From a virus: DNA of 64,000 nt. The position numbers and the translations under genes are program-made. Of the stretch, positions 13,890 through 41,507 are shown in pieces. The stretch is taken from positions 9,805 to 73,804 of the IMG/VR virus record IMGVR_UViG_3300005439_000019. One strand, given 5' to 3'. The number at the start of each line of letters is the position of its first letter. Position 1 is the stretch's first letter. The notes beneath the pieces are model-generated. The model was given only the letters and a program-made list of their open reading frames with translations, did not search any database and was not told the DNA's origin.

Positions 13890-14648
13890 ATGACGCAGAC
13901 GCTCGGGCAGGTAGTGGCGGCGGAGGCAGCGGCGCGGGCCGATGCCAACAAGCGCGGCGGGACGCTGCACAAGCAGGGCCAGAAGACCGACCTCTTCGAG
14001 GGGTTCGACACCACGTACTCGCCGTTCGCCGAGGCGGACGACGGGAGCGACTCCCGGGCGCTCCAGCGCCCCCCGGAGGGCAAGCGCGTCCAGCTCGTCG
14101 CCGAGGACCTGCTGCGCGAGTTCATGAACGAGATGCGCAGCGCCATCGACCTGGCCGCCGTCAAGGACGAGGCCAACTGCCGGGCGAGGGCCGACGTGAT
14201 CACGCCCGGCGGCCTGGTCCTGCTGACCGCCGTCCCGGCCACCCACCTGCTGCACATGGAGAAGGTGCTGGAAGACTTCGCGACCTTCATCGCCAAGCTC
14301 CCGGTCCGCGACCCGGCCATCGACTGGACCTACAGCCCCGACGACCGGATGGCCCACTCCCCGGCGACCTTCACCAACAGCGAGGAGGTCCGGACGAAGG
14401 CGCTGGTTATCGTCGCGCCGACGCAGTACCAGGCCGGCCAGGGGACCACCTACCAGGAGCGCGTCGCCGTCGGCCGCCGCACCACCGTCCGGCACACCGG
14501 GGCGCTGTCGGTGCAGCGCAAGCGCGACCTGGAGCGGCGCGTCGCCGAGCTGAAGGTCGCCTTCAAGCAGGCCCGGGAGGCGGCGAACCGCGTGGAGGCC
14601 GCCGACGTCCGGGAGGCCGACGAGCTGTTCGGCTATATCCTGGGATAG
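13890..14648 (+). CDS. hypothetical protein (252 aa)
   Basis: Track ORF 13854..14648; ATG at 13890 preceded by GGGGAGAGG; high GC3. Confidence 0.5.
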   Translation: MTQTLGQVVAAEAAARADANKRGGTLHKQGQKTDLFEGFDTTYSPFAEADDGSDSRALQRPPEGKRVQLVAEDLLREFMNEMRSAIDLAAVKDEANCRARADVITPGGLVLLTAVPATHLLHMEKVLEDFATFIAKLPVRDPAIDWTYSPDDRMAHSPATFTNSEEVRTKALVIVAPTQYQAGQGTTYQERVAVGRRTTVRHTGALSVQRKRDLERRVAELKVAFKQAREAANRVEAADVREADELFGYILG

Positions 14649-23522: not shown

Positions 23523-26500
23523 CTACAGGAAGAGGTCCGAGCCGTCCAGGTCGTCCATGACGGCCGGGGCGTACTGGGCGGAGGCTCCTACCGGGGCGAG
23601 CGACGGGACCGACCGGGCGGCGGTGCGCTGCTGCGGGGGGCGCGCGGCCTGGCGCTGCGGGGCGACGGCCGACAGGACCCCGATCTCGTGCTCGATCAGC
23701 GCCGTGGACAGAGCCGCGTCGCGCTCGATGTGCTCGGCGACCGCCAGCTCCTCTCCGTGGGCGATCCCGGCGGTGACCCGCAGGCGCGCCAGGCGGATGG
23801 AGGCGAAGGTGCGCCGCGAGGCCTCGGCCTCGCTCAGCGAGGCGTTGACGCTGCCGCCCGCGCCCTGCTGCTGGCCCGGCTGCCGGGCGTCCAGCAGCCA
23901 CGGGAACGCCGCGCCGTTGTCGCCCTGGCCGCCGATGCCGGGGCCGTGCGCCTTCAGCGGGTCGGGGTCGATGCGGACGTCGGTCTCGATGCGCCGCTGC
24001 TCCAGGGGGACGCCGCCGTCCTGGCTGGGGTTGGTCCCCTGCACGGGCTGGGTGACGTCGACCAGGTTGGTCGCCGGGGGCGTCTGCACCTCGACGCCCG
24101 GGGTGATCGGGGTGGTGGTCTGCATGGCCGGGACCCGCGAGTTGGCACCGGGCGTGGTGCCGGGACGGCCCGCGTTGTCCATCGCCTCGGGGGCGAGCGC
24201 CTGCTCGGTGGTCTCCGACGGCGGACCCTGCGGCGGGTCGGGGACCGGGCTGGCCGGGTTGAGGAGGTCCGCCTGCCTGCGCATCTCCCGGCGGCCGATC
24301 TCGGCCAGCTCCCTGCCTACCCCCGCAGCGGAGGCGAGGAAGCTGAGCTGGGCCTCCAGGACCGCGTTACGGGCGCTCAGCTCGGCAATCCGGCGCGTCT
24401 GGGCCTGCGCGAGCGCGGCGGCCGTCTTACGGTCTGCTGGCATGTCCTTGTCCTCGTCTTCCTCGTCTTCCTCGTCCTCGGGCTGCTCGCCCTCGGCAGA
24501 CGGGTCTTCTGACTCTTCCGGGGGCACCGCGCCCTCGCCGCCTTCCCCGTCCTCGTCGGCGGGGTGCAGCGCGGCCATCCCGCACGCCGGGCAGGGGACC
24601 CCCGGCTGGGCGGCGGCGTCCGCCTCGAAGGTGGTGCCGCACGCTGGGCAGATCAGCTCCTCGGCGTAGGCCTGGTCCCCGCCTTCCTCGTCTTCCGGCG
24701 GGACGGCACCCTCCGGGGCTTCCTCGTCCTCTTCGGCTGCTGCCTCTTCTTCTTCCGCCACGGCATCCGGCGGGAGCCCGTCGGTGTCCCCGGCGGGCAC
24801 GGGGCCGCCCTCCCCCTGGACCGTCGGCACCCCGTCAGGGGCGATCTGGTCGGGGTGCACGAGCTGCTCGTCGGCGTCATCTCCGCTGCCGATCTCCGCC
24901 TGCGCCGGGGCACCGGGCTGCCCGGCACCCGGCTGGTCCGGTGGGATCTCGACGTCCCCCGAGCTGTCGAGCTGGTCACGTACCTCGCTGGCCTTGCTGG
25001 TGTCCGGGTCCCTGAAAACCGACGGAGGGACGACGAAGCCGCAGACCGGGCACCGCGATCCCGACCAGACGTTGTGCTCTCCGCAGACCGGGCACTCGTC
25101 CATCCGCAGCGCGTCCACCTGCGGCGGGACCCTGGTCTCCCCGTACGCCTGCCTGGTCAGCGAGTTGTAGGACTGGCGCAGCGCGTAGTCCATCGGCCGG
25201 GATGTCCTCCCGAGGATGGTGTCCTGCTGGTGGGCCTGGTTCCAGTGCCCCGGCATGGCGGTGTCTTCCTTCCAGCCGATCTTCCCGAGGCAGTGCTGGC
25301 ACAGCATCGGCATCATCCGGCTGGGCGGGGACCCGACCTCGTTGAAGTCAGCCCCGCAGCCGGCGCAGTGGGTGCCGCCCTCCGCCAGCGCCCCGTGGTA
25401 GTGCATGTTCTCCTCGGGGATGTCCGGGTGGTGCTGCCTGCGCCGCTCCTGCCAGCGGGTCCGGGAGTTCTCCCCGAGCTGGTTACGGCCCTTCCCGCCG
25501 CCGCCCTTGCTGCCGGATGCGTCCTCGGCGGCGTTCTTGCGGATCTGCACCAGCCAGGTGGCCGCCTGCACCTGGTGCGGGGCGATCTTCCTGCCGTAGT
25601 GCGCCGACAGCTCCCTGGACGCCTGCCGGTAGGCGTGCGCGACGTGCTCGTAGTGCTGGTGCTGGCCGATCGGCATGCCGTCCTTCTCGGTGTCGGTCAG
25701 CCGGTGCCCGACGGCGACGGACATGGCGTGCCGGTCGACGACCACCTTCTCCGTGCCGTTCCTCACGTCCTCGTCGGTGTCGCCGCCGTGCTCTATCAGG
25801 TGGGCGAACGCCGCCGTCTTGGGGGCCTTCAGCACCTTGGAGTGGTGCTCCCCGCCGAGGATGCGGACGGCGGCCTTCTGGTGCACGCCCATCGCCCCGG
25901 TGCCTGGGCCGGGCGGGTCGCCGTGGAAGGCGCGGCTGGCGTTGAACAGGTTGACCGGCCACAGGGTGCGGACCGAGTAGGCGGACAGCACGCCGGCCCC
26001 CATGGCGGCGTCCCCCTTGCCCATCACCTTGGCGACGTGGTGGGCGTCGGAGTACCACCTGTCGCCCAGCGCCCGCTCGTCGTCGCTGGCCTCGTGGTAG
26101 GCGGCGACGATGTGGTGGCTGGAGACCGGGTGGCGCTTGAACCACTCGTGCTCACCGCCCTCGGCCTTCTTCGCCGCCGACGTCCGCATCTCGGCGATGT
26201 CGGAGTCCGGGATGTCGTCGACCGTGGGGTAGGAGTCGCTCCTCGACCTGTGGGTCCGGGAGTGGACGTAGAACCCGTTGCGGTCCTTCTTCAGGCCAAC
26301 CCCGTCGAACCGGGCGTCGCGGCCGTAACCGCGCACCGGCCTGCCCTGAGGCCGCTTCCGGGCGCTCTGCGACTGCATCGGGGCGTCCTCCGGGTTCCAC
26401 TGGCGGGCGGGCGCGAAGGGCTCGGTGCCCTCGTCCCGGTACCCTCTCTCGACTTCCAGGGGGTGCTGCTCGGTGCCGCCGGCGCTGTTGTAGCGGACGG

Positions 26501-27707
26501 AGCCCGGCTTGCCCTCGGCGGTGCCTGTCCCGTAGTGCCCGATCGCGCAGTCGTTGCAGAGGAACGGCATGCCCTGGTTCTGCCAGTCGCCGGCTGCGCT
26601 GCTCTCGTACGGGCTGGTGAACGGGTGGCCGCAGTTGACGCAGCGGCCCGCGTCGGACGGCCACGGGAGCGCGGCGGACCTGCGCGACGCGGTGAACGGG
26701 TCCGGCGGCATCTGCCCCTCGTCCCCCCGGGGGCGGCGCGGCAGCTCGTGCCCTGACAGCTCCTCGAACCGGGCGTGCATGTACTCCCGCATCGCCTGCT
26801 GCGCCTGGTCGCGCCGTGCCTCGATGCCGGGGATCGACGCGAAGACGCCCTCGGGGTCGGCGGGGGTGGCGGGGTGGTCGCGCTTCATCCCGTCGTGGTG
26901 GTGCCAGCCGCCGTTGGCCTCCGGCTTGCGCATGTTGACCCGGACCTGCTCGCCGCAGACCAGGCAGTGCGTGCCCCCGTAGGTCTGGTCCCGGTTCACG
27001 GCCGTCCTCGCGGCGGCCTTCGCCATGCCCCGGGCGTCGGGCTTGCCGAGCAGGTACGCGGTCGGGTCGGCCGGGTCCTCGACCAGGAGCGAGTTCTCGA
27101 AGAACGACAGGCCGGCGCAGACCTCGTGGATCAGCTTCTCCTCGACCTTGCCGGTCACCTTGTTGCGCTGGCGGATCTTCTTGCCCTTCATAGCGGGCAG
27201 GTGCTTGCAGTACTCGGCGGGGCTGGTCGCCTTGTTGCCGCAGGCGGAGCAGCGCGACCACTCGACGTCCACGCCCATCGAGGTGCGGTTCACCCGCCCG
27301 GCGAGGATGGCCTTGGCCAGGCGCGGGAACCGCACGGCGTCGACCTCCATGAGGCCCTCGACCCAGGTGTCCGGCGTCCCGTCGGGGTTGCGGTCGCGGT
27401 GCAGGGCGATGGCGACGATGACGCCCCGTGCCCGGCGGTGGTTGGCGTTGTGGTGGTTGACGAAGACCGGCTTGCCGAGGAAGCTCTTGTACCCCTTCTC
27501 GATCTCATCGGCCGGGAACGTGTCGTGGTTGTCGTTGGTCCGGCTGGAGATCATCCGGGAGCGGACGTACAGGTAGCCCTGGCGCGGCTGGTAGTCGAAC
27601 GCGACGCGGTGGGCGGTCTTGAAGATCCGGCGCTCAGCGCCCGCGAGGCTGCCCGGGGCAGCGTGACGCCACGCCTCCAGTACCTCCAGCGTCGCGTACT
27701 TCCGCAC
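23523..27707 (-). CDS. giant prohead protease (HK97/S78-like N-terminus) fused to a zinc-ribbon-rich, acidic, scaffold-like protein (~1394 aa)
   Basis: Track ORF 23523..27893; probable GTG start at 27707 after GGGAGGA. KPVFVNHHNANHRRARG and NRTSMGVDVEW resemble the PLLWNHD and Ser motifs of HK97-family prohead proteases. Six or more CxxC pairs. Glu/Asp blocks. C-terminal coiled coil. Confidence 0.5.
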   Translation of the reverse strand: MRKYATLEVLEAWRHAAPGSLAGAERRIFKTAHRVAFDYQPRQGYLYVRSRMISSRTNDNHDTFPADEIEKGYKSFLGKPVFVNHHNANHRRARGVIVAIALHRDRNPDGTPDTWVEGLMEVDAVRFPRLAKAILAGRVNRTSMGVDVEWSRCSACGNKATSPAEYCKHLPAMKGKKIRQRNKVTGKVEEKLIHEVCAGLSFFENSLLVEDPADPTAYLLGKPDARGMAKAAARTAVNRDQTYGGTHCLVCGEQVRVNMRKPEANGGWHHHDGMKRDHPATPADPEGVFASIPGIEARRDQAQQAMREYMHARFEELSGHELPRRPRGDEGQMPPDPFTASRRSAALPWPSDAGRCVNCGHPFTSPYESSAAGDWQNQGMPFLCNDCAIGHYGTGTAEGKPGSVRYNSAGGTEQHPLEVERGYRDEGTEPFAPARQWNPEDAPMQSQSARKRPQGRPVRGYGRDARFDGVGLKKDRNGFYVHSRTHRSRSDSYPTVDDIPDSDIAEMRTSAAKKAEGGEHEWFKRHPVSSHHIVAAYHEASDDERALGDRWYSDAHHVAKVMGKGDAAMGAGVLSAYSVRTLWPVNLFNASRAFHGDPPGPGTGAMGVHQKAAVRILGGEHHSKVLKAPKTAAFAHLIEHGGDTDEDVRNGTEKVVVDRHAMSVAVGHRLTDTEKDGMPIGQHQHYEHVAHAYRQASRELSAHYGRKIAPHQVQAATWLVQIRKNAAEDASGSKGGGGKGRNQLGENSRTRWQERRRQHHPDIPEENMHYHGALAEGGTHCAGCGADFNEVGSPPSRMMPMLCQHCLGKIGWKEDTAMPGHWNQAHQQDTILGRTSRPMDYALRQSYNSLTRQAYGETRVPPQVDALRMDECPVCGEHNVWSGSRCPVCGFVVPPSVFRDPDTSKASEVRDQLDSSGDVEIPPDQPGAGQPGAPAQAEIGSGDDADEQLVHPDQIAPDGVPTVQGEGGPVPAGDTDGLPPDAVAEEEEAAAEEDEEAPEGAVPPEDEEGGDQAYAEELICPACGTTFEADAAAQPGVPCPACGMAALHPADEDGEGGEGAVPPEESEDPSAEGEQPEDEEDEEDEDKDMPADRKTAAALAQAQTRRIAELSARNAVLEAQLSFLASAAGVGRELAEIGRREMRRQADLLNPASPVPDPPQGPPSETTEQALAPEAMDNAGRPGTTPGANSRVPAMQTTTPITPGVEVQTPPATNLVDVTQPVQGTNPSQDGGVPLEQRRIETDVRIDPDPLKAHGPGIGGQGDNGAAFPWLLDARQPGQQQGAGGSVNASLSEAEASRRTFASIRLARLRVTAGIAHGEELAVAEHIERDAALSTALIEHEIGVLSAVAPQRQAARPPQQRTAARSVPSLAPVGASAQYAPAVMDDLDGSDLFL

Positions 27708-27762
27708 AGGGTCCTCCCGGTCTGCTCTCCTCTTCCGGGGCAGCCCGGGAACCCGTTGCTCA

Positions 27763-27783
27763 ATACAGCTTTTCTTGATATTC
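27763..27783 (+). promoter_or_regulatory. conserved promoter/operator motif (copy 4) in a divergent intergenic region
   Basis: ATACAGCTTTTCTTGATATTC between the minus gene start (27707) and the plus gene start (27835). Confidence 0.45.
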
Positions 27784-27834
27784 TCGTGCCAGCGAACGCA
27801 GAGCAGGGACGAAGCAGGGACACTGGAGGAGAAG

Positions 27835-28395
27835 ATGACCGAGATGACACTGGCCCAGCAGGTCGCCCAGGAGGCAGCCGGACGGGTCCACAAGCTCGCC
27901 CCCTACCTGACCGACGGCCGGCACCCGCTCACCCCCGGGCAGGCCGAGGGGATCATGCGGCACCTGGGCACGTGCCCGGTACGGCCAGCTCCGGAGGAGA
28001 ACGTGGCGCGTCACGACGCTCACAGGGCGGAAACGGATCACGAGCGTCACGCGGCAGGCCCCGTCATCGCCGACATCACGGCCGGGTTCTACGCCACGCC
28101 GAGCAGGACCGGCACCAACGACCTGGACTTCTGGAAGGTCACCGAGGGCCGCAGGCCCGGCATCCGGTTCGTCAAGCGGGTGGTCGGCGGCGGCGACGAC
28201 AAGTACCCCAGGCTGATCGAGATCTCCAACCAGGAGCAGCTCCAGGCGCTGCGGGCTATCCTGCGGGCAGGGATATCAGAGGCTGCCGACGTCTACGCCG
28301 TCAACCAGGAGCGCTGCAAGAAGTGCGGCAGCCAGCTTACTGACGAGGCGTCGCGGGCGGCCAGGATGGGGCCTGTATGCCGAGGAGAACGGTGA
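27835..28395 (+). CDS. hypothetical protein (186 aa)
   Basis: Frame of track ORF 27775..28395; ATG after GGAGGAG; C-terminal CKKCGSQ...C. Confidence 0.45.
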   Translation: MTEMTLAQQVAQEAAGRVHKLAPYLTDGRHPLTPGQAEGIMRHLGTCPVRPAPEENVARHDAHRAETDHERHAAGPVIADITAGFYATPSRTGTNDLDFWKVTEGRRPGIRFVKRVVGGGDDKYPRLIEISNQEQLQALRAILRAGISEAADVYAVNQERCKKCGSQLTDEASRAARMGPVCRGER

Positions 28396-29673: not shown

Positions 29674-29866
29674 TGCTTCCGGGGTCGACCCAGACGCCTA
29701 TGCCGCTCCAGGTAACGGCGGGCATCACCTTCCCCATCAGGAGGGCGAGGGTCCTGAGGATCTCGTCCCCTGGAACCCCGTGAGCCTCAAGGAACACCCC
29801 CCGCCCCTGGAACGGGTCCTCGGCGGCCATCTCCTCCCGGGAGCGCTCCGTCCACCACGCGGTCAT
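29519..29866 (-). CDS. hypothetical protein (ATGA-coupled to the giant acidic gene), 3' part doubtful
   Basis: ORF track. ATGA overlap with the stop of 29863..33600. GC3 decays after about 70 codons, where the other frame becomes coding. Confidence 0.3.
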   Translation of the reverse strand: MTAWWTERSREEMAAEDPFQGRGVFLEAHGVPGDEILRTLALLMGKVMPAVTWSGIGVWVDPGSSETDAGLIRERWDGGKASDDRRPHHAAGERRGDHRLHRPAGDRAARSQGKA

Positions 29867-32800
29867 GCGAACATCACGTCGTCGTCGTAGTCGTCCAGGC
29901 TGATGCCCCGCTTGCCCAGGTCCTCGTCGGCGTCCTCGTAGTGGGTGCCCTCCAGGCGCAGCAGGTCCAGGTTCCGGGCGCGGCTGCCCGCGCCCTCCCG
30001 GATCAGCTCCTCTGCCTCGGCCTGGGGCAGCACGTCAGCGGTCTTGGACAGGTGCGCCCGCGCCGCCGCCGCGATGTCCCCGTCGGCTACCGCAGGCCGG
30101 GAGTCCCCGGCGTAGCCCCTCGCCGCCGCCGACCGCTGGAAGGCGGCCACGATGTCGTCGATCTGCCCCTGCGGCTGGCCTGCCGGGACGGCCGTCTCGT
30201 CAGAGTCGGCCCCGCCGCCGGACCACTGCTGGTTGCCGACCGTCTGGATCGAGGGGTCACCCGGGCTCAGGTACTCGTCCCCCGACCCCATGCCCGGCTC
30301 CTGCCCGACCGGGGACGGCTGCTGCGCCTGCGGCCACGTCTCCCGCGCCAGGTCGCCCATCGGGGTGCCCGCCAGGTGGTGCAGGTACATCCGGCGCGCC
30401 GCGCCGAACTCGCCGAGTGCGGCGATGTCCTCCGCCGCCCCCTGGCCCTGCCCGGTCGCGGCGCTCCCGCCGCCGATCGTCCCGTCGGCCGCCGCCGTCG
30501 CCTCGATCTCCTCGTCCCCGGTCGTCGAGGGGAGGGCGGGCTCCGGCTCGTCGCGCAGCTCGGCGAGCGCGCCGTCAAGCTGCGGCACGGTGTCCCGGAA
30601 CGGGTACGGGGTGCCCGAGGCCAGGGCCTCCTCCATCCGGATGCCCTCCGGGTCACGGGGGGTGATAGAGGTCGACGGGCCGGACGTGTTCGCCCGGTCG
30701 GTGTAGCCGAACGAGCCCTGGTCCTCCGGCTGCCATCCCTCCACGGCAGGCCAGTGCAGGTCCCCGGGCACCGGCCTGGGCGCGCCCGGCACCAGCACCT
30801 GGTGGGCGGCTGTGTTGGTCAGCGGCATCTGCATGGCGCTGTCGTCCTGGATGCCGCCCCAGTTGTCCGGGTCCGGCCCGGACAGGAAGCCGTAAGAGCC
30901 TGGGTCCATGTCCCAGTTGCGGGGGGACGTCGCCCCGTACGGCTTCTGGGTGGGGTGCTCTGACACGTTCTGGCTGCCCCAGGAGGAGTTCGCCTGGTCG
31001 GCGGTGGCGCGCAGCCCGGCCATCACCCGGAGCGCGCCGACCGCGCCAGGGTCCGCGCCGGCGCGCAGCAGCGCCACGGTGGCGCGGTCGGCCGGCGCGA
31101 GGCTGCTCCAGTGCGGCGGCAGCGGCTCAAGCGACACGCTGCGCTCCGCGCCAGGGAAGTCCCGGTGCGGCGTGCCTCCGTACGGGTCGACGGAGAACCC
31201 CTGCTCCGGGCGGAAGGCGGCGGGCCAGCGTGTCTCCCCTGCCAGCCCGGACGGCGCGTCGTGCTGGTGGTTGAAGGCGTGCTCCGTCTTGTTGCGGTGC
31301 TCCGCGTCGTGCCAGGCCCGCGCCCAGATGTCTCCCTTGGCCGGGTCGCCCATCCGGGTCAGGGCACGCGCCACCGATCCGGCGTCCAGCCCGTGATGGC
31401 CGATGATGTGCTGCGCCAGGTCCCGTGGCGCGACCGGCGGCACGTACGGCCACCCCTCGCGGTGCGCCAGGTGCGCCAGCGGGGCGCGCCACTGCTCGCG
31501 CCACTGGCCCGCGTGCGGGTCCCCCTCGTACGGCGGGTAGGACTTCACCACCACGGTCTGCGGCGACCAGGCCGGGGCCTCGGCGTCCGCGCCGAAGGAG
31601 CGGCCGAACATGCCCCGGCTCTGCGCCTCGAACTGGAGGGCCATCACGTGGGAGCACGGCCGGCCGGCGTACCGGGCCGCCGCCGCCTTGTCCTGGTGGA
31701 AGCTCGCCCAGGGGCAGCCGCAGGCCCAGTACTGGATCGTCATCCTCTTGCCGACCGGGCGCTGGATGCCGCTCTCGTAGGTGTCGTGGTCGCCCCGCAC
31801 CTCGCCGATCACCATCCCCGCCGAGGCATGGGTGATCCGGACGTGGCCCTCGGCCCTGATCCGCTTCGCCTTCGCCACCACGTCGTGCCAGGCGGCGGTG
31901 AACTCGAACCGGAAGGCGGGGCTCCCGGCGGCGGCGGTGAACATCGCCAGCGCGGCGTCCTTGGAGAACGGGGTGTCGTCGTCGTCCGGCTGGTCCCCGT
32001 CGTCCGGGTCGTCCCCCTGGTCCCCGCCCCCGCCGCTGTCCCCGTCGCCGGGAGAGAACGGGCCGGGTGCGGGAGCGCCGCGCTTCACCTTGCCGTCGTC
32101 CGACCCCTGGGTGTAGGCGCGGCCCGTCTCGCTGACGTCGGCCCCGGCCTGCGGCCAGTTGTCCGGGTGTCCGGGATCGTCCGGGGACAGTCCGGGATCG
32201 TCCGGATTCTTCCGGCCGTCCGGCGGAGTGACCGGCGGAGTGACCGGCAGCCCGCCCCCGCTGGCCTGGCCAGACGTGATTTCCGGGCCGTTCTTGTCCG
32301 CCGGGTTGTCCGGCGCGTTGTCCGGAGTTGTCCGGGAATTGTCCAGCGAGTTGTCCGGGTCATCGTGCTCGTGCTGCTGCGGCTGCGGGTCCGGGCCGTC
32401 GTCGTCGTGGTCGTGCTTCAGCTCCTGGCCGTCGATCCGCACGTGCACGTTGAGCGCGGCGTCCCGGTGCACGCGCGGGAAGCCGTCATCGCCCTCGACC
32501 CCGCCCTGGTCGATCTCGCTGTCGTCGTCGTCATGCGGGTGAGGCAGGTCGAGCGCGGCCTCCGCCTCCCCCAGGCGCTCGCCCGGTTCCTCGTGGACGA
32601 CGTGCTCTCCCGGCCCGAGCAGCGGGAAGTCGGCGGAGTTCACGAAGTCACCCCAGGTGCTGCTCGGCGGGCTCTCCTGCCAGGTGTGGAGGGTGCCGCG
32701 CTCCTTGTCGGTCCACGGCACCCGGGCTTCGTGGCGGGAGGCGATAAAGTCGTGATAGCCACCGTTACCCCCGTGGTCTTCCCAGTCGGGGTCAAACTCG

Positions 32801-33600
32801 TAGTCCTCCGGGTGATAGTGGTCGGCGCTGCCCTCGAAGTGCTCTTGCGAGTGCCGGTGGGGCAGCGAGATGCGCCAGAAGTCATTAGGAACGGAAGATC
32901 CGCTATACCCGTGCTCCTCCGCCATGTGATGGTGCAGCTCGGCGTAGTCCTCATCGCTTATCGCAGCAGTGAACGCCCCGATCGGCAGTCCCGGCCCGTT
33001 GCCGCTGGAGATCCCCTCGGGGTACATCCCGACGGTGGCGGCGTTCTCGTTCTCCTTGTCGCCGCCCTGGTCCTTCGGGAGGGCCTGGTTCCACCTGTCG
33101 TCGCCCTGGCCCTCCTGCGACTCGTCATCGTAGGCGTTCGGGTCCTCGGCTCGGGGGACGGTGCCGTGCTCGGGGGCGTCGCCGGCGTCGTCCACGTGCG
33201 TGCCGTTGATGTCGGTGGCGTGGTGGAGCATGCCGAAGAAGCCCTGCGCCTCCTCGATGGCCGCCAGGCGGGCCAGGACGGGGCTCTGGCCCATCAGCGG
33301 GGGCGGTGCCTCCTCCTGGGGGCCGAGGTTGTCGCGTGCCCACTGCTGCTCTCCCGGCTCCGCCCAGTACATGCCGGTGTCGCCCTCGCCGCCGTTGTAG
33401 TCCCCGTTGCGGGCGTCGTGCTCCGCGTCGTACGCCTCGGCGGCCCGCCGCATCCCGATGACCGTGATCTGGCTGCCGGGGTCAGGCCGGTCGGTCAGGA
33501 TGTCGCCCAGCTCGGGGTAGTCGGCGGAGGCAGTGCGGTGCTGCTCCTCCGGGTCCTCGTCGTGCTCCTGGGACAGCCGGGTTGAGTGCCTCGGGGTCAT
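29863..33600 (-). CDS. giant, extremely acidic (D/E/H-rich) protein with a central SWIM-type zinc finger (1245 aa)
   Basis: ORF track. CxCx(n)CxH motif: WACGCPWASF...GRPCSHVMA. Long low-complexity HDHDDDGPDPQP tracts. Confidence 0.5.
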   Translation of the reverse strand: MTPRHSTRLSQEHDEDPEEQHRTASADYPELGDILTDRPDPGSQITVIGMRRAAEAYDAEHDARNGDYNGGEGDTGMYWAEPGEQQWARDNLGPQEEAPPPLMGQSPVLARLAAIEEAQGFFGMLHHATDINGTHVDDAGDAPEHGTVPRAEDPNAYDDESQEGQGDDRWNQALPKDQGGDKENENAATVGMYPEGISSGNGPGLPIGAFTAAISDEDYAELHHHMAEEHGYSGSSVPNDFWRISLPHRHSQEHFEGSADHYHPEDYEFDPDWEDHGGNGGYHDFIASRHEARVPWTDKERGTLHTWQESPPSSTWGDFVNSADFPLLGPGEHVVHEEPGERLGEAEAALDLPHPHDDDDSEIDQGGVEGDDGFPRVHRDAALNVHVRIDGQELKHDHDDDGPDPQPQQHEHDDPDNSLDNSRTTPDNAPDNPADKNGPEITSGQASGGGLPVTPPVTPPDGRKNPDDPGLSPDDPGHPDNWPQAGADVSETGRAYTQGSDDGKVKRGAPAPGPFSPGDGDSGGGGDQGDDPDDGDQPDDDDTPFSKDAALAMFTAAAGSPAFRFEFTAAWHDVVAKAKRIRAEGHVRITHASAGMVIGEVRGDHDTYESGIQRPVGKRMTIQYWACGCPWASFHQDKAAAARYAGRPCSHVMALQFEAQSRGMFGRSFGADAEAPAWSPQTVVVKSYPPYEGDPHAGQWREQWRAPLAHLAHREGWPYVPPVAPRDLAQHIIGHHGLDAGSVARALTRMGDPAKGDIWARAWHDAEHRNKTEHAFNHQHDAPSGLAGETRWPAAFRPEQGFSVDPYGGTPHRDFPGAERSVSLEPLPPHWSSLAPADRATVALLRAGADPGAVGALRVMAGLRATADQANSSWGSQNVSEHPTQKPYGATSPRNWDMDPGSYGFLSGPDPDNWGGIQDDSAMQMPLTNTAAHQVLVPGAPRPVPGDLHWPAVEGWQPEDQGSFGYTDRANTSGPSTSITPRDPEGIRMEEALASGTPYPFRDTVPQLDGALAELRDEPEPALPSTTGDEEIEATAAADGTIGGGSAATGQGQGAAEDIAALGEFGAARRMYLHHLAGTPMGDLARETWPQAQQPSPVGQEPGMGSGDEYLSPGDPSIQTVGNQQWSGGGADSDETAVPAGQPQGQIDDIVAAFQRSAAARGYAGDSRPAVADGDIAAAARAHLSKTADVLPQAEAEELIREGAGSRARNLDLLRLEGTHYEDADEDLGKRGISLDDYDDDVMFA

Positions 33601-34301: not shown

Positions 34302-34531
34302 CCCGGCAGTTTGAGTGGCCGCCTCTCACGGAGGAGGGCGACCGGGTGCGCAAGCACCTGATCACCGAGCACGGCGAGCTTGAGGCGGACGAGCTGAGCG
34401 ATGTCCTGGCCTTCGCCGAGCACTACTCCCAGCATTTCTCCCCGGACGGGGGGATCACCCCGGCGAAGGGGACGCAGGAGCACTCATTCGCCGACCTGTC
34501 CTACAACGCGGACCTGGACGAGGAGGCGTAG
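34298..34531 (+). CDS. hypothetical acidic protein
   Basis: ORF track; GTGA overlap with the upstream gene. Confidence 0.4.
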   Translation: MTRQFEWPPLTEEGDRVRKHLITEHGELEADELSDVLAFAEHYSQHFSPDGGITPAKGTQEHSFADLSYNADLDEEA

Positions 34532-34535
34532 GCCG

Positions 34536-34952
34536 GTGCCTTACGCGATTGCCGGCGTGGTCGTCTTCGTCCTGCTCGTGGCCGGGGGCGTCGAGCTTGA
34601 CGACCTTATGCACGAGTACCCCGGCCAGTTCTACATGGGCGTCTTCGCCACACTGTTCATCGCCGTGGGCTGCGGCACCGCGCTGCTGCGCAGGGCCGCC
34701 AGGGGCGGGCACCAGGTGCCGCTCGTACGGGAGCTGCCTCCCCTGCCGAAGGCGATCCAGGCGGTGCCGGTCATGACCGCCGCCGCCGTGACGGCGGGGC
34801 CGCAGGAAGAGGTGGAGTGCGAGCGCCAGGACTGCGACCACAGGGTGGTCCCCAAGGCAGCCTGGGGCGTCCGGCTGGAGGGCGAGGCGAGGGAGCACCT
34901 GTTCTGCTCGGAGTGGTGCGCCCAGGCGTGGGACTCCGCCAGGGTGTCCTAG
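34536..34952 (+). CDS. membrane protein with C-terminal Cys/His cluster
   Basis: Frame of track ORF 34401..34952 from the GTG after GAGGAGG; two TM helices. Confidence 0.4.
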   Translation: MPYAIAGVVVFVLLVAGGVELDDLMHEYPGQFYMGVFATLFIAVGCGTALLRRAARGGHQVPLVRELPPLPKAIQAVPVMTAAAVTAGPQEEVECERQDCDHRVVPKAAWGVRLEGEAREHLFCSEWCAQAWDSARVS

Positions 34953-37900
34953 CCGGGCGCTCCCGCGTAGACGCGGCGCTGTGCCTCCTGGAAGGCGGTG
35001 TAGGCGAGGTCGGCGTCGCGCTCGGCGTCGTAGGCCTGGGCGTAGAGGAAGCCCGCCGACCCGTCGGTGCCGCCGGCCTGCCGCATCATCTTGTAGTTCG
35101 ACAGCTTCTGGTCGGCGATGATCTTCAGTGCCAGGTAGGAGGACCAGAGAGCCTCAAGGTCCGGGCCGGCCGTCGCCGACGCGGCGAGCAGCGGCGTGCC
35201 GGACAGCGCGGCCTGGCCGAACCGGGTGAACGCGGTGGCGTACAGCACCGGGAGCGCGTGCAGGGAGGCCGCCCCCTGGATGGGGATTTCCCCGGCGGCC
35301 GTCATCGTGCCCGGCGCGGCCAGGTGAGCTGTCCCGTTCTTCCCACGGGTCCCCTGGGCGTGCAGGATCGCGGCGGCAAGCAGCCCGGCAGTGAAGTGGA
35401 GGACACGGTGGCCGGCGGGGTGAAGCGCCCCCGAGCCGGACAGCGCGGCCGTGCCGGGCACCGTCCGGACGTGCCCGGCGAAGATCGTCCCGGACCCGGA
35501 GAGCGGCGCGACGGGGTTCTTGGCGACGGAGGGGGTGCCGCCGAAGGTCCCGATCCCCGACAGGGAGGCACCGGACGGGATGTTCTTCCGGGAGACGGCG
35601 GCCAGGGTGCCCGACCCTGACAGCGGGGCGTGGCCCTCGTGCCCGATGACGGCGGCGGAAGCAAGGGAGCCGGGTGCCGACATGGCGGCGGACGCGGCGT
35701 GCCCGTGGACCGGCGGGGCGGTCAGGGTCCCGGACCCGGAGAAGGCGACGACGCCCGGGACGAACTTCCTGCCGGCGGCGGTGAAGGTGCCGGACCCCGA
35801 CAGCGGGGCGAACCCCGCGAAGGTCATGATGAAGACGGCCGTGAGGGAGCCCGAGCCCGACAGCGCCGCTGCACCGGGCGAGATGACCAGCGCAGCGCCC
35901 CCGATGGACCCCGAGCCCGACATCGCTGCGGTACCCGGGACCAGCTTCTGGCCGGTGCCGGAGGCGGTGCCCGAGCCGGACAGGGAGACGGCGGCCTGGA
36001 CCAGCACCAGGGCCTGGCCGCTGAGGGTCCCTGAGCCGTCCAGGGCGATGACGCGCGAGAAGGCGACCAGGGCGGCTGCGGTGATGGTGCCCTGGCCGTC
36101 GAGGGGAGCGGCCCCGGGGACCAGCTTCTGGCCCGCTGCGGTGAACGTGCCGGAGCCGTTAAGTGCCGCCGCGCCTGATATGAACCCGCCCTCGACTGCC
36201 GTGATGCTGCCGGAGCCGTCCAGGGCTGCGGCACCGGGAACCGTCTTCTGCCCTGTGGCGGTGAAGCTCCCGGACCCCGACAGGACGGCGGTGCCGCCCG
36301 GGATGATGATCGTCGGCGGTGCCGTCAGGGTGCCCGAGCCGGACATCGCCGACGCGCCCGGGACCTGCTTCTGCCCGGTCGCGGTGACCGTCCCCTGGCC
36401 GTCGAGGGCCGCCGCGCCGGGGACGCTCTTCTGGCCCGTTGAGGTGATGACGCCCGAGCCCGACATGGAGGACGCGCCGGGCACCTGCTTCTGCCCGGTC
36501 GCGGTGAAAGTGCCCGAGCCGGACATCGAGGACGCAGCCGGGACGATGACCGTCGGGGGTGCCGTGACGGTTCCGGAGCCGGAGAGGGCGGCTGCTCCGG
36601 GAACCTGCTTCTGGGCGGTGGCCGCGATGGTCCCCGAGCCCGACAGGGAGGCGGCCCCGGCGAGCACCCCGGCGGCGGTGAGCGTCCCCGAGCCCGACAT
36701 CGCTGCGGTACCCGGGACCAGCTTCTGGCCGGTCGCGGTGAACGTCCCCGAGCCGGACAGGGCGGCCGAGCCGAAGGCGAAGATGGCGAAGGACCCGGTG
36801 AATGTCCCGATACCCGACAGGGAGGACGAGCCGGGAACCTGCTTCTGGGCGGTGGCAGTGATCGTGCCGGAGCCCGTGAGGGCTGCCGATCCCGCCAGGA
36901 CCCCGGCAGCGGTGAAAGTGCCCGAGCCGGACATCGCCGACGCGCCGGGGACAGTCTTCTGGCCCGTAGCCGTGAAGGTGCCGGACCCTGCCAGGGCGGC
37001 GCTGCCCGCGAAGACCCCGGCCGCCGTGATAGTCCCTGACCCGGTGAGGGCGGCAGCACCGGGCACCGTCTTCTGGCCGGCGGCGGTGATAGCACCCGAG
37101 CCTGACAGGGAGGCCGTGCCGGCGTGCGTGACGGTTGCCTTGAACGTCGCGGCGACGGCAGTGTAGTCGGCGGCCGTCGTCTGCGTCCCGGAGTAGGTGA
37201 CAGCCCCCGTGCTGGTCAGCACCTGGTAGCCGGCGACCAGGCCCATGACCCCGCCGGGCGAGTTCTGCTGCGCCAGGTTGAACCACGGGCTCGACGGCCC
37301 GCTGATCGTGCCGATGGACGGGCTGGCGAAGGCCCCCACCGCCCCGATGGCGACCTCGGAGGCCTGGGTGGTCGCCGCCGTCGCCCCGGAGGACCAGGAG
37401 GTAACCGTGGTGTCGCTGATCCCGCTGGAGGTCTTGTCGGGGGTAGCGGTGTTGGCCAAGCCGAACCACTCCATGACCGTGACCATGAGGGCGGCCCCGG
37501 TGCCCGAGGACGTGAAGGTAATGGAGAGCGCCGTCTGGCCGCCGGCGCAGTTGGGGTCAGCCCAGATCGCCGTCGTCATGAAATCAGAGGAGACGTTCCC
37601 GGCGGTGAGCGACTGCGCGAAGTTGTCGGCGCTGCCGCCGAGGGTGATCCCGGTGACGCTCGGGTTGTTGGTGCCCGCGTCCCCGGTGACGCACACGATC
37701 AGGCAGTTGCCGGAGGTCGTCGTCCAGGGCAGGGTTATGGATACCGGCGATGCAGCGCCGTTGCCCGTCACCGACTGGACGAGCGACGGCTTCCCCTGGA
37801 TGCCCCCGGTCGCCCTGATCGTGCCGGAGCCCGACAGGGAGGCGGTACCGCTGTGAGTGGTGCCCACGGCTTTGAACGTGGCGATGAGGGCCGCACCGTC

Positions 37901-38521
37901 AGATGACGAGGCGAACGTTCCCGCGTAGGACGGCGTGCCCGTCGCGGAAAGCACGTTGTAGCCGACGAGCAGGCCCACGTGCGTGCTGGCGCTGGTGACC
38001 TGGGTGAGGTTGGTCCACGGGGACGACGGCCCGGTGATGGTCCCGACGCCGCTGCCGTTGAAGGTGCCGACCGCGCCGATCGCGACCTCGGACGCCTGGG
38101 TGGTCGTTGCCGTGGTACCCGACGACCAGGAGGTGATAGCCGATGCGACGTTCCCGGCTGTCTTATCCACGGGCGTCGTGGTGGCGATCCCCGACCATTC
38201 CATGACGATCACGTCGACCGACCCGGAGGCGGCGCTGACCGTGACCACGACGGAGGTCTGCCCGCCGGCGCAGTTCGGGTCGGACCAGAGGTACACCGAC
38301 TCGCTGTCAACGGACGGGTTCCCGGCCGTGGCCGACTGCGCGAAGTTGCCGGCCGAGCCGCCGAGGGTGATCCCGCTGACCGTGGGGTTCGTCGGAGACG
38401 ACGAGGTGACGACGGCAACGACCAGGCAGTTACCTGCCGTCGTGCTCGACGTCAGGGTAACGGTCACCGTTGTCACGGAGGCCGCTGTCGCTGACTTCGA
38501 CTGGACAAGCGACGGGGCCAC
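34949..38521 (-). CDS. fibre-like protein (1190 aa): duplicated ~230-aa N-terminal domain plus ~36 tandem 17-aa repeats
   Basis: ORF track. Two N-terminal copies of a domain (..NCLVVAVVTSSSPTNPTVSGITLGGSAGNFAQS..DPNCAGGQT..), then 17-aa repeats of consensus A-A-L-S-G-S-G-T-I-T-A-x-G-Q-K-x-V-P-G. Homologous repeats occur in 11060..13162. Confidence 0.55.
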   Translation of the reverse strand: MAPSLVQSKSATAASVTTVTVTLTSSTTAGNCLVVAVVTSSSPTNPTVSGITLGGSAGNFAQSATAGNPSVDSESVYLWSDPNCAGGQTSVVVTVSAASGSVDVIVMEWSGIATTTPVDKTAGNVASAITSWSSGTTATTTQASEVAIGAVGTFNGSGVGTITGPSSPWTNLTQVTSASTHVGLLVGYNVLSATGTPSYAGTFASSSDGAALIATFKAVGTTHSGTASLSGSGTIRATGGIQGKPSLVQSVTGNGAASPVSITLPWTTTSGNCLIVCVTGDAGTNNPSVTGITLGGSADNFAQSLTAGNVSSDFMTTAIWADPNCAGGQTALSITFTSSGTGAALMVTVMEWFGLANTATPDKTSSGISDTTVTSWSSGATAATTQASEVAIGAVGAFASPSIGTISGPSSPWFNLAQQNSPGGVMGLVAGYQVLTSTGAVTYSGTQTTAADYTAVAATFKATVTHAGTASLSGSGAITAAGQKTVPGAAALTGSGTITAAGVFAGSAALAGSGTFTATGQKTVPGASAMSGSGTFTAAGVLAGSAALTGSGTITATAQKQVPGSSSLSGIGTFTGSFAIFAFGSAALSGSGTFTATGQKLVPGTAAMSGSGTLTAAGVLAGAASLSGSGTIAATAQKQVPGAAALSGSGTVTAPPTVIVPAASSMSGSGTFTATGQKQVPGASSMSGSGVITSTGQKSVPGAAALDGQGTVTATGQKQVPGASAMSGSGTLTAPPTIIIPGGTAVLSGSGSFTATGQKTVPGAAALDGSGSITAVEGGFISGAAALNGSGTFTAAGQKLVPGAAPLDGQGTITAAALVAFSRVIALDGSGTLSGQALVLVQAAVSLSGSGTASGTGQKLVPGTAAMSGSGSIGGAALVISPGAAALSGSGSLTAVFIMTFAGFAPLSGSGTFTAAGRKFVPGVVAFSGSGTLTAPPVHGHAASAAMSAPGSLASAAVIGHEGHAPLSGSGTLAAVSRKNIPSGASLSGIGTFGGTPSVAKNPVAPLSGSGTIFAGHVRTVPGTAALSGSGALHPAGHRVLHFTAGLLAAAILHAQGTRGKNGTAHLAAPGTMTAAGEIPIQGAASLHALPVLYATAFTRFGQAALSGTPLLAASATAGPDLEALWSSYLALKIIADQKLSNYKMMRQAGGTDGSAGFLYAQAYDAERDADLAYTAFQEAQRRVYAGAPG
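35250..37100 (-). repeat. ~36 tandem copies of a 51-bp coding repeat (17-aa SGSGT repeat)
   Basis: Repeated SLSGSGTITA-GQK-VPGAAA units across aa ~475-1090 of the ORF 34949..38521 translation. Confidence 0.55.
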
Positions 38522-38597
38522 GGGCGCGCCTCCCTCCTATGAGGCCCGCGTGCGGCCGGGCGGTCCTAGCGCCGCGCCGCGTTCCTGGGCGACGCGG

Positions 38598-39011
38598 TTA
38601 CCAGACGCTTGCGTCGCAGGTCACGGCCCCGGAGGCGAACTGAACCGTGTCACCGTTCGCGACCCCGGTGATATTGGCGGTCAGAGCGCCCTGGAACCAG
38701 CGGAGCGGGGTGCCTGCGGTGTCCCAGATCTCGACTGAGGTGATGGTCGTCCAGGAGCCGGTCGCCGTCCACGACGGGGTGTTAGACGAGGTGGACACGC
38801 CGGAGGAGTTCGCGCCAAAGGTGATCGCTACGCCGCCGGCGGTGTAGCCGGGGCAGTTACCTGAGGTGGCCTCGGTGCCGTTGGAGGTGTTGGACCCCTG
38901 GGCGGTCATCAGCCGCAGGTGCAGGGCGGTCGGGTAGGTCGGGGCGGACCCGCCGTGCAGGATCGCGTCCATGATGGACGCGGCGCGGGTCCGGTCGGTC
39001 ATCGATGCCAT
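38598..39011 (-). CDS. hypothetical structural (tail-fibre-associated?) protein
   Basis: ORF track; Thr/Ser/Gly-rich. Confidence 0.4.
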   Translation of the reverse strand: MASMTDRTRAASIMDAILHGGSAPTYPTALHLRLMTAQGSNTSNGTEATSGNCPGYTAGGVAITFGANSSGVSTSSNTPSWTATGSWTTITSVEIWDTAGTPLRWFQGALTANITGVANGDTVQFASGAVTCDASVW

Positions 39012-39012
39012 G

Positions 39013-39219
39013 TCAGGAAACCTCCGCGCTGAAGCCGGCCAGGATGATGGTCACGGGGCGGCAGGGGATTCCGGTTTCCCTGTTCGCCTGCCCGTGGTTG
39101 TGGGGCTGCGTGCAGCACTTGCAGCCCGCCGCGTCCAGCGCGTCGTGGATGTCCACGTCATCGGAGGTGACGGCGGCGACCGCCGTGCACTCCTTGTTCA
39201 CGCACTGCACCAGGTGCAT
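39013..39219 (-). CDS. small Cys-rich protein (68 aa)
   Basis: Own translation MHLVQCVNKECTAVAAV...CKCCTQPH (tail of track ORF 39013..40065); high GC3. Confidence 0.4.
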   Translation of the reverse strand: MHLVQCVNKECTAVAAVTSDDVDIHDALDAAGCKCCTQPHNHGQANRETGIPCRPVTIILAGFSAEVS

Positions 39220-39230: not shown

Positions 39231-41507
39231 TCACCCCCGCGCGGGGGCGTAGCTCTCGTAATCCACCAGGTCGCCGTCGTCCTCGGTCACGCCGAGGCGC
39301 GAGCGGATTCCGACGTGCGGCGGGTCCTGGTAGCCCCGGATCGACGGGCCGGAGAACCAGGTGCCCTGTCCCTTCTGGGCCTGCGCCTCGCTTTCTGCCT
39401 GGTGCGCCGCGAGGACGGGCAGGCCGTCGCTCCCGGAGGCGGCGATATCCCCCTCCAGGGCGGCCTCGTTGACGGCACGGGCCAGGGCTGCCATGCGGCG
39501 CACCCGGTCGGAGCGGCGCATCAGCGCCCCCTGCTTCGGCATGCCGCGCTTGCCGGCCTTCGGCATCGGGCCGCGCTGCTCGGAGGACTCCGGCGGTACC
39601 TGCGGCATGCCGCCCGCGTCCTCTCCGGCGATCTCGCCCTCGCTCGGGGCGTTGACCGGGCCGCCCGCCTGGGCCTCCATCTCCTCGGCCATCTGCTGGT
39701 CCTCGGGGGTGGGCGCGAGGTCCGGCAGGGGCAGCGGCTGGACGCCCATCCGGTCGATCATCATCTGCTGGGCGGCCAGGGCCGGGGGAACGCCCTCCAC
39801 CTGGGCGACGGGGGAGAAGTCGGCCATGAGGTCCGGCGGGACGGGCAGGCCCTGGTTGCGCAGCTCGACGAACGCCTGGCGGCGGGTGCGGGCCTGGGCG
39901 ATGATGTCGGCGACCGCCTCGTCCTGGCTCTGCTCGCGCTCCTCGTCCAGGTCGACCCCGAGCCCCCGCGTGCGCGTGCGAGCGGAGATCGGGATGCCGG
40001 AGGCGCGCAGCGCCTCGGTGAACTGGCGGGTGATGTCCTCGTCCCGGAAGTTGAGGACCTGGCACTTGAGGTCGGGCACCAGGAGCTTGGGCTGCTCGGT
40101 GATCCGCTTCTCGCCGGTCTCCTCGTCGGTCTCCAGGACCTCCTCCATGATCACGAAGCGGCGGCCGGAGCGCTCCTCGTAGTCATAGTGTTCCTGCGCT
40201 TCAGCAACAATGAGCATCCGCTTGCGCATGTGCCTCATGAGCATCTGCTGGTAGGTGGTCATGAGCTGCTCGACGAGCTGCTTGTTGAGCGCGTCGGCGG
40301 CGTACGTCTGCCCCTCGCCCGCCCCGGTGAGGAACGTCCTGGACAGGCCGAACACCTGGAGAACCCGGTCCTCGATCCGCTCGAAGTCCATGCTCAGGTC
40401 AGGCATGTTCTCCCGGCCGAACACCGGCTCGATCTCCACCGCGAAGTTGTGGATCAGCGCCCGGAAGTCGCCCGCGAGGGCGGCGTCCAGCGCCATCTCG
40501 AAGTTCTCCAGGTCATCGTCGGTGGGAATCCACGGGACGCTGGTGCCGAGGTCGGTGGCGGACGCGCCGAGCTTGCACAGGATCAGCGGGGTGTAGAGCC
40601 GGTCGGCGATCGAGTCGAGCGCGGTGTTGAGCATCTCCTGCTGGAGCATGGAGCGCATCGCCCGGGTGAGCAGCGGCAGGCCCCGCAGGCTGAAGGTGTC
40701 GCCCTTGAACCGGAGCTGGCGCAGCAGGATGTTGCTGACCGGCATGAATGCGTTCTCGGCGGTGTAGGCGGCCAGCTCCGGGTACTCCTGGACCAGCCGG
40801 TTGTACTCCCAGGCCGGCTGGCGGGTGGTGAGGATCTGCCGGATCGTCCACGGCAGCCGGGTGAAGTACCGGGGCTCCTTCAGGAACGGGCTGCGCTCCA
40901 CCTTGATGTCGTCGGCGTTGAGCAGCTCCTCGTCGTCCCAGATGCCCAGGTCCTCGTTGAACGTGGCGAACGGCCACGCCTCCCCGGTGATGTAGTACTC
41001 GCGGCCGATGTCGACGAGGAACTCGCCGTAGTCAAGGCCGTCGTCGCCGAAGAACAGGTCCTGGTAGAAGTCGGTGAGCCGCTGGTCCTTGCACTCCAGG
41101 TGCGCCCCGACGACAGGGAACTTGCTGAAGATGTCGACGCAGGAGCCGACGATCGGGTCGGTCTGGTAGAGCAGCCGGCAGAACGCCCGGACCTTCGCCA
41201 GCTCCTCGTTCTGGGAGAAGTCGTAGGGGAGGTTGTTCTGCCGCCAGTAGAACAGCGGGTCCCTGGGCCGTCCGGTGGCGAACTGGATGTCGGAGAAGCC
41301 AGACCCCCCGGCTCCCCCGGCCGTGTAGGCGGTGCGGCGGCCGACGGACGCCTGCCGGGCGTTGATCCGCCGGTTCTTGCGGGCCTCGGCGACCTCGGGG
41401 CTCATCTGCTCGGAGCTGAGCGCACCGACGCCCATCGTCCGGCCGAGCTGCCTGGCTACTGACGCCTGCCGGGCGGTGCCCGACCCCGGCCTGTACGCGA
41501 CTCGCAT
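39231..41507 (-). CDS. portal (head-tail connector)-like protein, 758 aa
   Basis: ORF track. Size, head-module context and an acidic C-terminal tail. No recognisable ATPase motifs. Family resemblance only. Confidence 0.45.
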   Translation of the reverse strand: MRVAYRPGSGTARQASVARQLGRTMGVGALSSEQMSPEVAEARKNRRINARQASVGRRTAYTAGGAGGSGFSDIQFATGRPRDPLFYWRQNNLPYDFSQNEELAKVRAFCRLLYQTDPIVGSCVDIFSKFPVVGAHLECKDQRLTDFYQDLFFGDDGLDYGEFLVDIGREYYITGEAWPFATFNEDLGIWDDEELLNADDIKVERSPFLKEPRYFTRLPWTIRQILTTRQPAWEYNRLVQEYPELAAYTAENAFMPVSNILLRQLRFKGDTFSLRGLPLLTRAMRSMLQQEMLNTALDSIADRLYTPLILCKLGASATDLGTSVPWIPTDDDLENFEMALDAALAGDFRALIHNFAVEIEPVFGRENMPDLSMDFERIEDRVLQVFGLSRTFLTGAGEGQTYAADALNKQLVEQLMTTYQQMLMRHMRKRMLIVAEAQEHYDYEERSGRRFVIMEEVLETDEETGEKRITEQPKLLVPDLKCQVLNFRDEDITRQFTEALRASGIPISARTRTRGLGVDLDEEREQSQDEAVADIIAQARTRRQAFVELRNQGLPVPPDLMADFSPVAQVEGVPPALAAQQMMIDRMGVQPLPLPDLAPTPEDQQMAEEMEAQAGGPVNAPSEGEIAGEDAGGMPQVPPESSEQRGPMPKAGKRGMPKQGALMRRSDRVRRMAALARAVNEAALEGDIAASGSDGLPVLAAHQAESEAQAQKGQGTWFSGPSIRGYQDPPHVGIRSRLGVTEDDGDLVDYESYAPARG

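Follow-up and report, generated by a model that had tools for sequence, protein, structure and literature searches.

Classical phage tail fibres are anchored to the virion by a conserved N-terminus and vary at their C-terminal end. T4 Hoc is a string of surface-exposed, Ig-like binding modules that ends in a conserved C-terminal attachment module and has no repeat shaft. In the triple beta-spiral shafts of the adenovirus fibre, reovirus sigma1 and PRD1 P5, short beta-hairpins, each with a conserved turn that contains Gly, recur every 15-16 residues or so, with a characteristic hydrophobic pattern. Here we describe a minus-strand gene in a 64,000-nucleotide stretch of viral DNA (positions 9,805 to 73,804 of IMG/VR record IMGVR_UViG_3300005439_000019; hereafter, the window) that encodes a protein of 1190 amino acids (aa) with two N-terminal beta-sandwich domains, a long array of 20-aa repeats centred on a G-S-G motif and a conserved C-terminal tail. 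In this protein the classical pattern is reversed: among its relatives the C-terminal 70-90 aa are conserved and the N-terminal domains are swapped. On balance we favour the reading that it is a modular host-adhesion fibre of the virion surface, anchored by its C-terminus and presenting distal N-terminal binding domains on a repeat shaft. Immediately upstream of the gene lies a member of the Gp80 family (PF23140). According to two reports that cite the GP4 structure, homologues of Gp80, or Fiber-1, form fibres or whiskers on the collar at the connector of podophage GP4 and of the myophages Bas63 and Sf14 (PMC12609058; PMC11445570), and the structural homologues of Gp80 in Bas63 are neck whiskers (PMC12609058). 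No counterpart of the long repeat protein has been described in GP4, Bas63 or Sf14, and its tie to the Gp80-like protein is one that we infer from gene order alone.

The 1190-aa open reading frame (ORF) is a real gene, and its repetitive structure is beyond chance. An initial annotation of the window had placed a 1190-aa protein on the minus strand; the ORF is indeed there and uninterrupted, and its GTG start is preceded by a strong Shine-Dalgarno sequence (Table 1). A database search with the protein returned 93 homologues in varied architectures (best E = 7e-130). Scans with Pfam, PHROGs and NCBIfam assigned it to no family, Pfam giving nothing even at E <= 10, and phmmer against PDB sequences gave no match at E <= 1. 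When the gene was compared by megablast with 50,697 phage records, no match was found either; in that collection of isolated phages the gene itself is absent, and only the repeat gives weak matches.

We then analyzed the periodicity of the array, which had been annotated as ~36 near-identical copies of a 51-bp unit encoding 17 aa. The array is indeed in frame and periodic, with protein self-identity of 0.40 at a lag of 20 residues and 0.35 at a lag of 40, whereas 200 shuffles gave no value above 0.167 at any lag. Its dimensions, however, had to be revised. The unit is 20 aa (60 bp) long, with some units of 18 aa (54 bp) and one of 21 aa (63 bp); the best DNA lags are 60, 120 and 180, and the spacings between DNA repeats are 60, 54, 63, 114, 120 and 123. 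Tandem Repeats Finder (TRF) reported only periods of 60, 114 and 234, with 69-74% match, over part of the array (36330..37043), and neither TRF nor the lag analysis gave any signal at 51 bp or 17 aa. A hidden Markov model (HMM) of the unit, with a score of at least 3 bits taken to define a clear unit, brought the count to about 33 in the array. Nor are the units near-identical: as protein, any two of them are on average 48% identical (20-85%), their DNA is 60-77% identical to reference copies, and the longest exact DNA repeat is 48 nt, present in two copies. The consensus unit is AALSGSGT[IF]TATGQKxVPGA, in which G5 and G7 are invariant. Hydrophilic (TGQKxVPG) and hydrophobic second halves mostly alternate along the array, which creates a super-period of 38-40 aa (114-120 nt). 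One further unit stands apart from the array, between the two N-terminal domains; its DNA copy (37807-37850) is 82% identical to one array unit. A single repeat unit likewise follows globular domains in two relatives, P0002 and L015.

The duplication of the N-terminal domain, also noted initially, was borne out: the two copies, at residues 1-226 and 247-469, are 54% identical, and DNA direct repeats at a spacing of 723 reflect it. An AlphaFold2 (AF2) model of domain 1 has a mean predicted local distance difference test (pLDDT) score of 94.3. Its fold matches that of many mycobacteriophage minor tail proteins, among them those of Tweety, Hawkeye, Gaia and DroogsArmy (E = 1e-7 to 1e-5) and also that of a CenC-like carbohydrate-binding protein. 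By analogy, we infer that the N-terminal domains are of a sugar-binding type and may bind cell-envelope glycans. At the opposite end of the protein, AF2 folds the last 70 residues into two helices that form a helical hairpin (pLDDT about 72-92).

For the repeat region, the AF2 monomer model gives every unit two to three short strands about its G-S-G turn, in a regular pattern but with pLDDT of only about 50-65. A profile of the array region matched the DUF2807 beta-helix structures 3lyc (E = 1.9e-5) and 3jx8 (E = 3.5e-5). The matched segments belong to PF10988, and an A-G-S-G motif recurs in them every 18-21 residues, as it does in the array; PF10988 was also reached by 7 of 64 sampled members of the repeat family (best E = 1.8e-7). 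More broadly, the motif hydrophobic-x-G-S-G-x-hydrophobic at a period of 18-21 residues is common to the array (units of 18, 20 and 21 aa) and to the DUF2807/GIN (PF10988), Toastrack-type single-chain beta-helix proteins. Those, however, are bacterial lipoprotein-like proteins of ~240 aa, whereas the window protein is a long putative phage fibre that has no PF10988 match even at E <= 10 (the Pfam gathering score is 24.2 bits). The array shares with triple beta-spiral shafts a short beta-hairpin repeat whose conserved turn contains Gly but differs from them in its 20-aa period, and sequence searches of the PDB with the 1190-aa protein and with the repeat profiles matched no fibre-shaft structure. 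A beta-solenoid shaft is plausible and an intertwined trimeric shaft possible; the single units found between globular domains fit a trimer rather better than a single-chain solenoid. Of the initial proposal of a beta-solenoid or fibre shaft, then, the fibre-type structural protein is supported, the repeat and the N-domain fold both occurring in phage tail proteins, while a beta-rich shaft is consistent with the low-confidence AF2 model, and a solenoid, consistent with the profile match to the DUF2807 structures and the PF10988 matches of the repeat family, is unproven.

Table 1. Features of the window, in order of position (coordinates are those of the window).
Feature	Position	Strand	Remarks
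Degenerate 20-aa repeat of the 700-aa protein	11060..12349	+	first ~430 residues; lag-20 z = 5.7
C-terminal domain of the 700-aa protein	12350..13162	+	~270 residues; Cys pairs; unrelated to the 1190-aa protein
1456-aa ORF	23523..27893	-	DUF7178; head-maturation-protease-like PHROG match
1245-aa ORF	29863..33600	-	L004 orthologue with Lipase_GDSL_2 domain
Convergent 183-aa ORF	34401..34952	+	predicted membrane segment; C-terminal Cys motif CERQDC...FCSEWC
Gene of the 1190-aa repeat protein	34949..38521	-	GTG start at 38521; stop codon 34949..34951
Conserved C-terminal tail	34952..35167	-	residues 1119-1190; helical hairpin, loop MMRQAGGTDGSAGFLY; putative anchor/oligomerisation module
Repeat array	35168..37114	-	residues 470-1118; 28 clear and about 5 degenerate units
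Clear-unit part of the array	35390..37114	-	residues 470-1044; unit HMM
Antisense ORF inside the gene	35451..37166	+	shadow; GC3 of the three antisense ORFs 0.83-0.94
Beta-sandwich domain 2	37115..37783	-	residues 247-469
Antisense ORF inside the gene	37245..37856	+	shadow
Isolated repeat unit	37784..37843	-	residues 227-246; ASLSGSGTIRATGGIQGKPS
Beta-sandwich domain 1	37844..38521	-	residues 1-226; N-terminal
Antisense ORF inside the gene	37983..38738	+	shadow
Shine-Dalgarno sequence	38529..38538	-	AGGAGGGAGG; 7 nt ahead of the GTG start
137-aa Gp80-like gene, upstream neighbour	38598..39011	-	PF23140 'podophage GP4 fiber I protein gp80', E = 2.3e-13, full length
68-aa Cys-rich ORF (MHLVQCVNKEC...GCKCC...)	39013..39219	-	between the portal and Gp80-like genes
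Portal protein gene	39231..41507	-	phrog_2833, E = 1e-143

To compare the protein with its relatives, we scanned IMG/VR by portal sequence, which yielded 80 loci on contigs no longer than 166 kb. A protein was taken as a positional orthologue if its gene followed the Gp80-like gene and if it bore the C-terminal tail AGPDLEALW...MMRQAGGTDG(S/T)AGFLY...AQRRV. These orthologues range from 392 to 1570 aa and carry 0-28 clear units (4 to 34 when degenerate matches are included), in agreement with the initial suggestion that repeat number varies among related phages. The tail of 70-90 aa is kept in all of them, at 40-82% identity, and its divergence follows that of the portal: it is 82% identical where the portals are 95% identical, 57-71% where they are 84-88% identical and 44-48% where they are 75-77% identical. 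An outlier, L021, has a portal of 77% identity and a tail match of just 40%, in a 150-aa ORF. The N-terminal parts, by contrast, are made up of domains that are unrelated between orthologues, among them the beta-sandwich domain (N), an esterase-like domain and a domain of ~190 aa (X). On contigs with portals that match the window's at 95-96% identity, we found X-array (L006 and L007), X-N-array (L009 and L011) and N-array (L008) architectures; the window itself has N-N-array.

The closest complete orthologue, L011, was aligned with the window protein. From domain 2 to the C-terminus the two are colinear and 68% identical, each unit pairing with its counterpart in unchanged order; their arrays differ in length by one insertion of a 24-aa Pro-rich linker, three 2-aa indels, by which units of 18 aa become units of 20 aa, and three indels of a single residue. 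The units are therefore old and conserved in position, the array has been neither homogenised nor rapidly resized, and the assembly is corroborated by an independent sample. The Pro-rich linker (e.g. AVPGLAVPGAAVPGTP) follows the first few units in L011 (2932-6420), L012 (12993-15815), L014 (13001-15793) and L015 (7862-11281). The window protein lacks this linker, which may be a flexible hinge in the shaft.

The source of the window is an uncultivated high-GC actinophage lineage with a genome of roughly 150-165 kb, distantly related to the cluster C mycobacteriophages. Its portal shares 88% identity with those of L004 and L005 and about 37% with those of cluster C mycobacteriophages, e.g. Myrna. 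On the minus strand, the genes follow in the order portal, 68-aa Cys-rich ORF, Gp80-like protein, repeat protein, 1245-aa ORF, 1456-aa ORF, cement protein and major head protein. The fibre gene thus lies between the portal gene and the DUF7178, cement and major head genes, outside any recognisable tail or baseplate module. A tail module was not recognised in the window: PHROGs, Pfam and tblastn searches of the neighbouring ORFs gave only families of 'unknown function' or nothing. The portal-Gp80-fibre order is kept in L004, L005 and other IMG/VR loci, and the same order of portal, Gp80-like and repeat genes is found on the contigs of P0001 and P0002, the two best homologues of full architecture, where the portals are 88% identical to that of the window. 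At least two divergent types of Gp80-like protein occur among the relatives, with 87% and 53% identity to the window copy (L004:8897-9337 and L005:8455-8868). As both accompany equally similar (88%) portals, the Gp80-like protein is itself a variable component.

Based on these results, we propose that the protein works as follows. The C-terminal hairpin would dock the fibre on a conserved virion component, oligomerise it, or both. Gene order alone suggests a location at the neck or head; the most likely docking site would be the neck or collar, next to the Gp80-like whisker, with the head as the alternative. Each unit would form a short beta-hairpin at the invariant G-x-G turn (AALS, GSG, TFTA) together with a third strand (xVPG), and the units would stack into a rigid beta shaft. 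On textbook geometry, this shaft would be about 16 nm long as a single-chain beta-solenoid, at 4.8 Å per rung, and several-fold longer as an intertwined trimer. The distal N-terminal domains may bind cell-envelope glycans for a reversible first contact. Specificity would evolve mainly through the exchange of N-terminal modules, and reach would evolve more slowly, through the gain or loss of whole units.

Several observations weigh against this model. The presence of the protein in the virion and its location there are predicted from genes alone, and glycan binding by the N-terminal domains from fold and domain company alone. Given how classical tail fibres are attached, a C-terminal anchor is an unusual assumption. 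The mean pLDDT of the shaft in the AF2 model is only 51, and a Foldseek search of this low-confidence repeat model against the PDB returned nothing below E = 3; the weak top matches (E >= 3) were autotransporter beta-helices. The DUF2807 link was not found with a cleaner profile of three units and 60 positions, and hhalign gave it a probability of 1.2%; since neither reproduced the link, membership in PF10988/DUF2807 is not claimed. Finally, the identities of the Gp80-like protein and of the C-terminal tail do not co-vary among the relatives (L015: Gp80 44%, tail 71%; L019: Gp80 78%, tail 44%), which makes a direct contact between Gp80 and the tail doubtful.

A bolder form of the proposal, which we regard as tentative and on the whole doubtful, is that the protein represents an undescribed class of reverse-polarity fibres, with a single-chain, DUF2807/Toastrack-like beta-solenoid stalk, a C-terminal helical hairpin docked at the neck or head and interchangeable N-terminal cassettes of lectin-like or enzymatic type; the 20-aa G-S-G repeat would then serve as a general-purpose rigid spacer of phage adhesins.

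Other explanations were weighed against the C-terminally anchored fibre. The protein could be a classical trimeric tail fibre on the baseplate or tail tip, encoded near the portal by chance, in which the repeats form an intertwined trimeric beta shaft. That the repeat and the N-domain fold are both found in annotated minor tail proteins speaks for such a fibre, as does the isolated unit, since a lone unit between globular domains is more readily envisaged in a beads-on-a-string trimer than in a solenoid made of one chain. We nevertheless consider this unlikely: the gene has the portal gene on one side and the capsid-maturation and major-capsid genes on the other, beside a gene of neck-whisker type and outside a recognisable tail module, and its conserved end is C-terminal and its variable end N-terminal, the reverse of typical tail fibres. 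The PHROGs, Pfam and tblastn searches of neighbouring ORFs identified no tail genes in the window with which it could be compared. Less probable still is a Hoc-like capsid decoration, a monomer attached to capsid hexamers by its C-terminal module with a solenoid stalk displaying the N-terminal binding domains. The variable exposed modules and conserved C-terminal module of T4 Hoc-type proteins resemble the organisation of the window protein, and the polarity of a C-terminal anchor is likewise that of Hoc. The gene, moreover, belongs to a head block with the cement and major head protein genes, and the results of AF2 and Foldseek weakly favour a beta-helix formed by one chain. Yet Pfam, PHROGs and phmmer against the PDB linked the protein neither to Hoc nor to a decoration family of any kind, Hoc and the window protein being dissimilar in both sequence and fold (Ig-like domains and no repeat shaft in Hoc), and the genes that adjoin the repeat gene are those of the portal and a whisker-type protein rather than capsid genes.

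A further explanation concerns the array itself, which had been annotated as recombination-prone and as a likely hazard for assembly collapse. If it were a contingency-type variable-number tandem repeat (VNTR), near-identical repeats would slip or recombine often, fibre length would switch within populations, and the array in the window might be mis-assembled. Unit number does differ among orthologues, there is one exact 48-nt duplicate, and 5 of 11 short related metagenomic contigs (L006-L009 and L013, all with near-identical portals) end within the orthologous array. The last figure is roughly what chance would give; an enrichment of contig breaks in the array is therefore not claimed, although the breaks are compatible with assembly fragmentation. 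The low identities of the units, in DNA as in protein, do not fit frequent slippage, and the closest relatives differ in their N-terminal domains and not in unit count. In addition, the array matches unit by unit that of the independent assembly L011, whose portal is 95% identical, so that over short evolutionary distances no rapid recombinational change in copy number is observed. With a longest exact repeat of only 48 nt and a colinear independent assembly, a collapse of the assembly is unlikely as well. Both warnings thus failed to hold, and we judge it very improbable that the array is a fast-slipping VNTR.

The last alternative, that the long minus-strand ORF is a by-product of high GC and that the true coding sequences are the antisense ORFs on the plus strand, can be dismissed with near certainty: their third-position GC content (GC3) won over a crude GC3-based gene caller, but they share their third codon position with the minus-strand ORF, so that GC3 cannot discriminate, and they are three separate ORFs facing a frame that is unbroken for 3.57 kb and whose product has 93 homologues, a domain modelled at pLDDT 94, conserved synteny and a Shine-Dalgarno sequence. 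For the same reason, that caller's choice of the antisense ORFs was rejected. The minus-strand ORF has the unusual property that GC2 exceeds GC1, which reflects its richness in Ala, Gly, Ser and Thr. Such antisense shadow ORFs, one of which carries a 571-aa 'PEPD' repeat, are a trap for gene callers based on composition.

We also assessed how widely the repeat is distributed. No Pfam or NCBIfam model recognises it in the 1190-aa protein. A 60-position profile of the repeat matched 1856 cluster representatives among 1.84 billion at E <= 1e-3, and 765 at E <= 1e-10; the best 150 of the 1856 matches are 240-2365 aa long. In the sample of 64 members, the Pfam domains found beside the repeat were Laminin_G_3, DUF4082, GDPD, PhoD and CBM96, and the PHROGs matched were tail fiber protein, minor tail protein, virion structural protein, baseplate wedge subunit, hydrolase and phosphodiesterase. 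The repeat also occurs in the fibre region of Methylophilales phage MEP402 and in gp72, a 'minor tail protein' of the Mycobacterium prophage prophiFSQJ01-1 (BK061312.1; tblastn 31.6% identity over ~190 aa, E = 3e-8). Like the window protein, gp72 is a phage structural or adhesion protein with a ~20-aa repeat, of the form xALSGxGxLxA. The two differ in setting and in layout: the gp72 gene belongs to a tail module and follows the tape measure gene, whereas the window gene follows the portal, and in gp72 about 14 units precede a C-terminal Gly_rich_2 domain, where the window protein has N-terminal globular domains and a C-terminal helical hairpin.

Within the window itself, a 700-aa protein encoded on the plus strand (11060..13162) had been described as a diverged paralogue with a degenerate version of the repeat. 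The repeat was confirmed: lag-20 self-identity is 0.212, against 0.124 +/- 0.016 in shuffled sequences, and none of 1000 shuffles reached the observed value. Three canonical units at the N-terminus are followed by increasingly degenerate ones, and the unit HMM found 11 units in total, 4 of them clear. P0001, an orthologue of the 1190-aa protein, matches the 700-aa protein with E = 5.6e-23. The term paralogue, however, is apt for the repeat and not for the C-terminal ~270 aa, which are unrelated, gave no Pfam match and by tblastn have no match in isolated phages; the two proteins share the repeat module only. Unlike the 1190-aa protein, the 700-aa protein is conserved as a whole in relatives, at 83-87% identity.

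Other features of the region were recorded alongside. The 183-aa convergent ORF overlaps the stop codon of the fibre gene by 4 nt, and in L004 and L005 small opposite-strand genes likewise stand directly after the fibre gene. The 68-aa Cys-rich ORF is conserved in L004 (8681-8893) and L005 (8247-8453) and may encode a small zinc-binding protein of the connector or collar. Elsewhere in the window, conserved actinophage proteins are encoded at 13854..14648 (+), 8758..9654 (+) and 15025..16137 (-) (DUF7873, phrog_2791 and phrog_26613), with homologues in cluster C mycobacteriophages, Gordonia phages and large Streptomyces phages; they gave no pointer to the tail module.

In kind, this is an ordinary phage fibre gene, and repeat-shafted fibres are commonplace in phages; it is moderately unusual in its reversed polarity, its position next to the portal and its 20-aa G-S-G repeat, which is fairly widespread and unmodelled. 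The locus marks a hypervariable gene, probably one that determines host range, in a large clade of uncultivated soil actinophages, with four combinations of N-terminal domains mounted on the same shaft and anchor in phages whose portals are 95-96% identical. In phage proteins the repeat itself, which is without a Pfam or NCBIfam model, connects modules that bind glycans and modules of hydrolytic type. Should the C-terminal anchor and the solenoid stalk prove true, the protein would offer a convenient natural scaffold on which receptor-binding modules could be exchanged.

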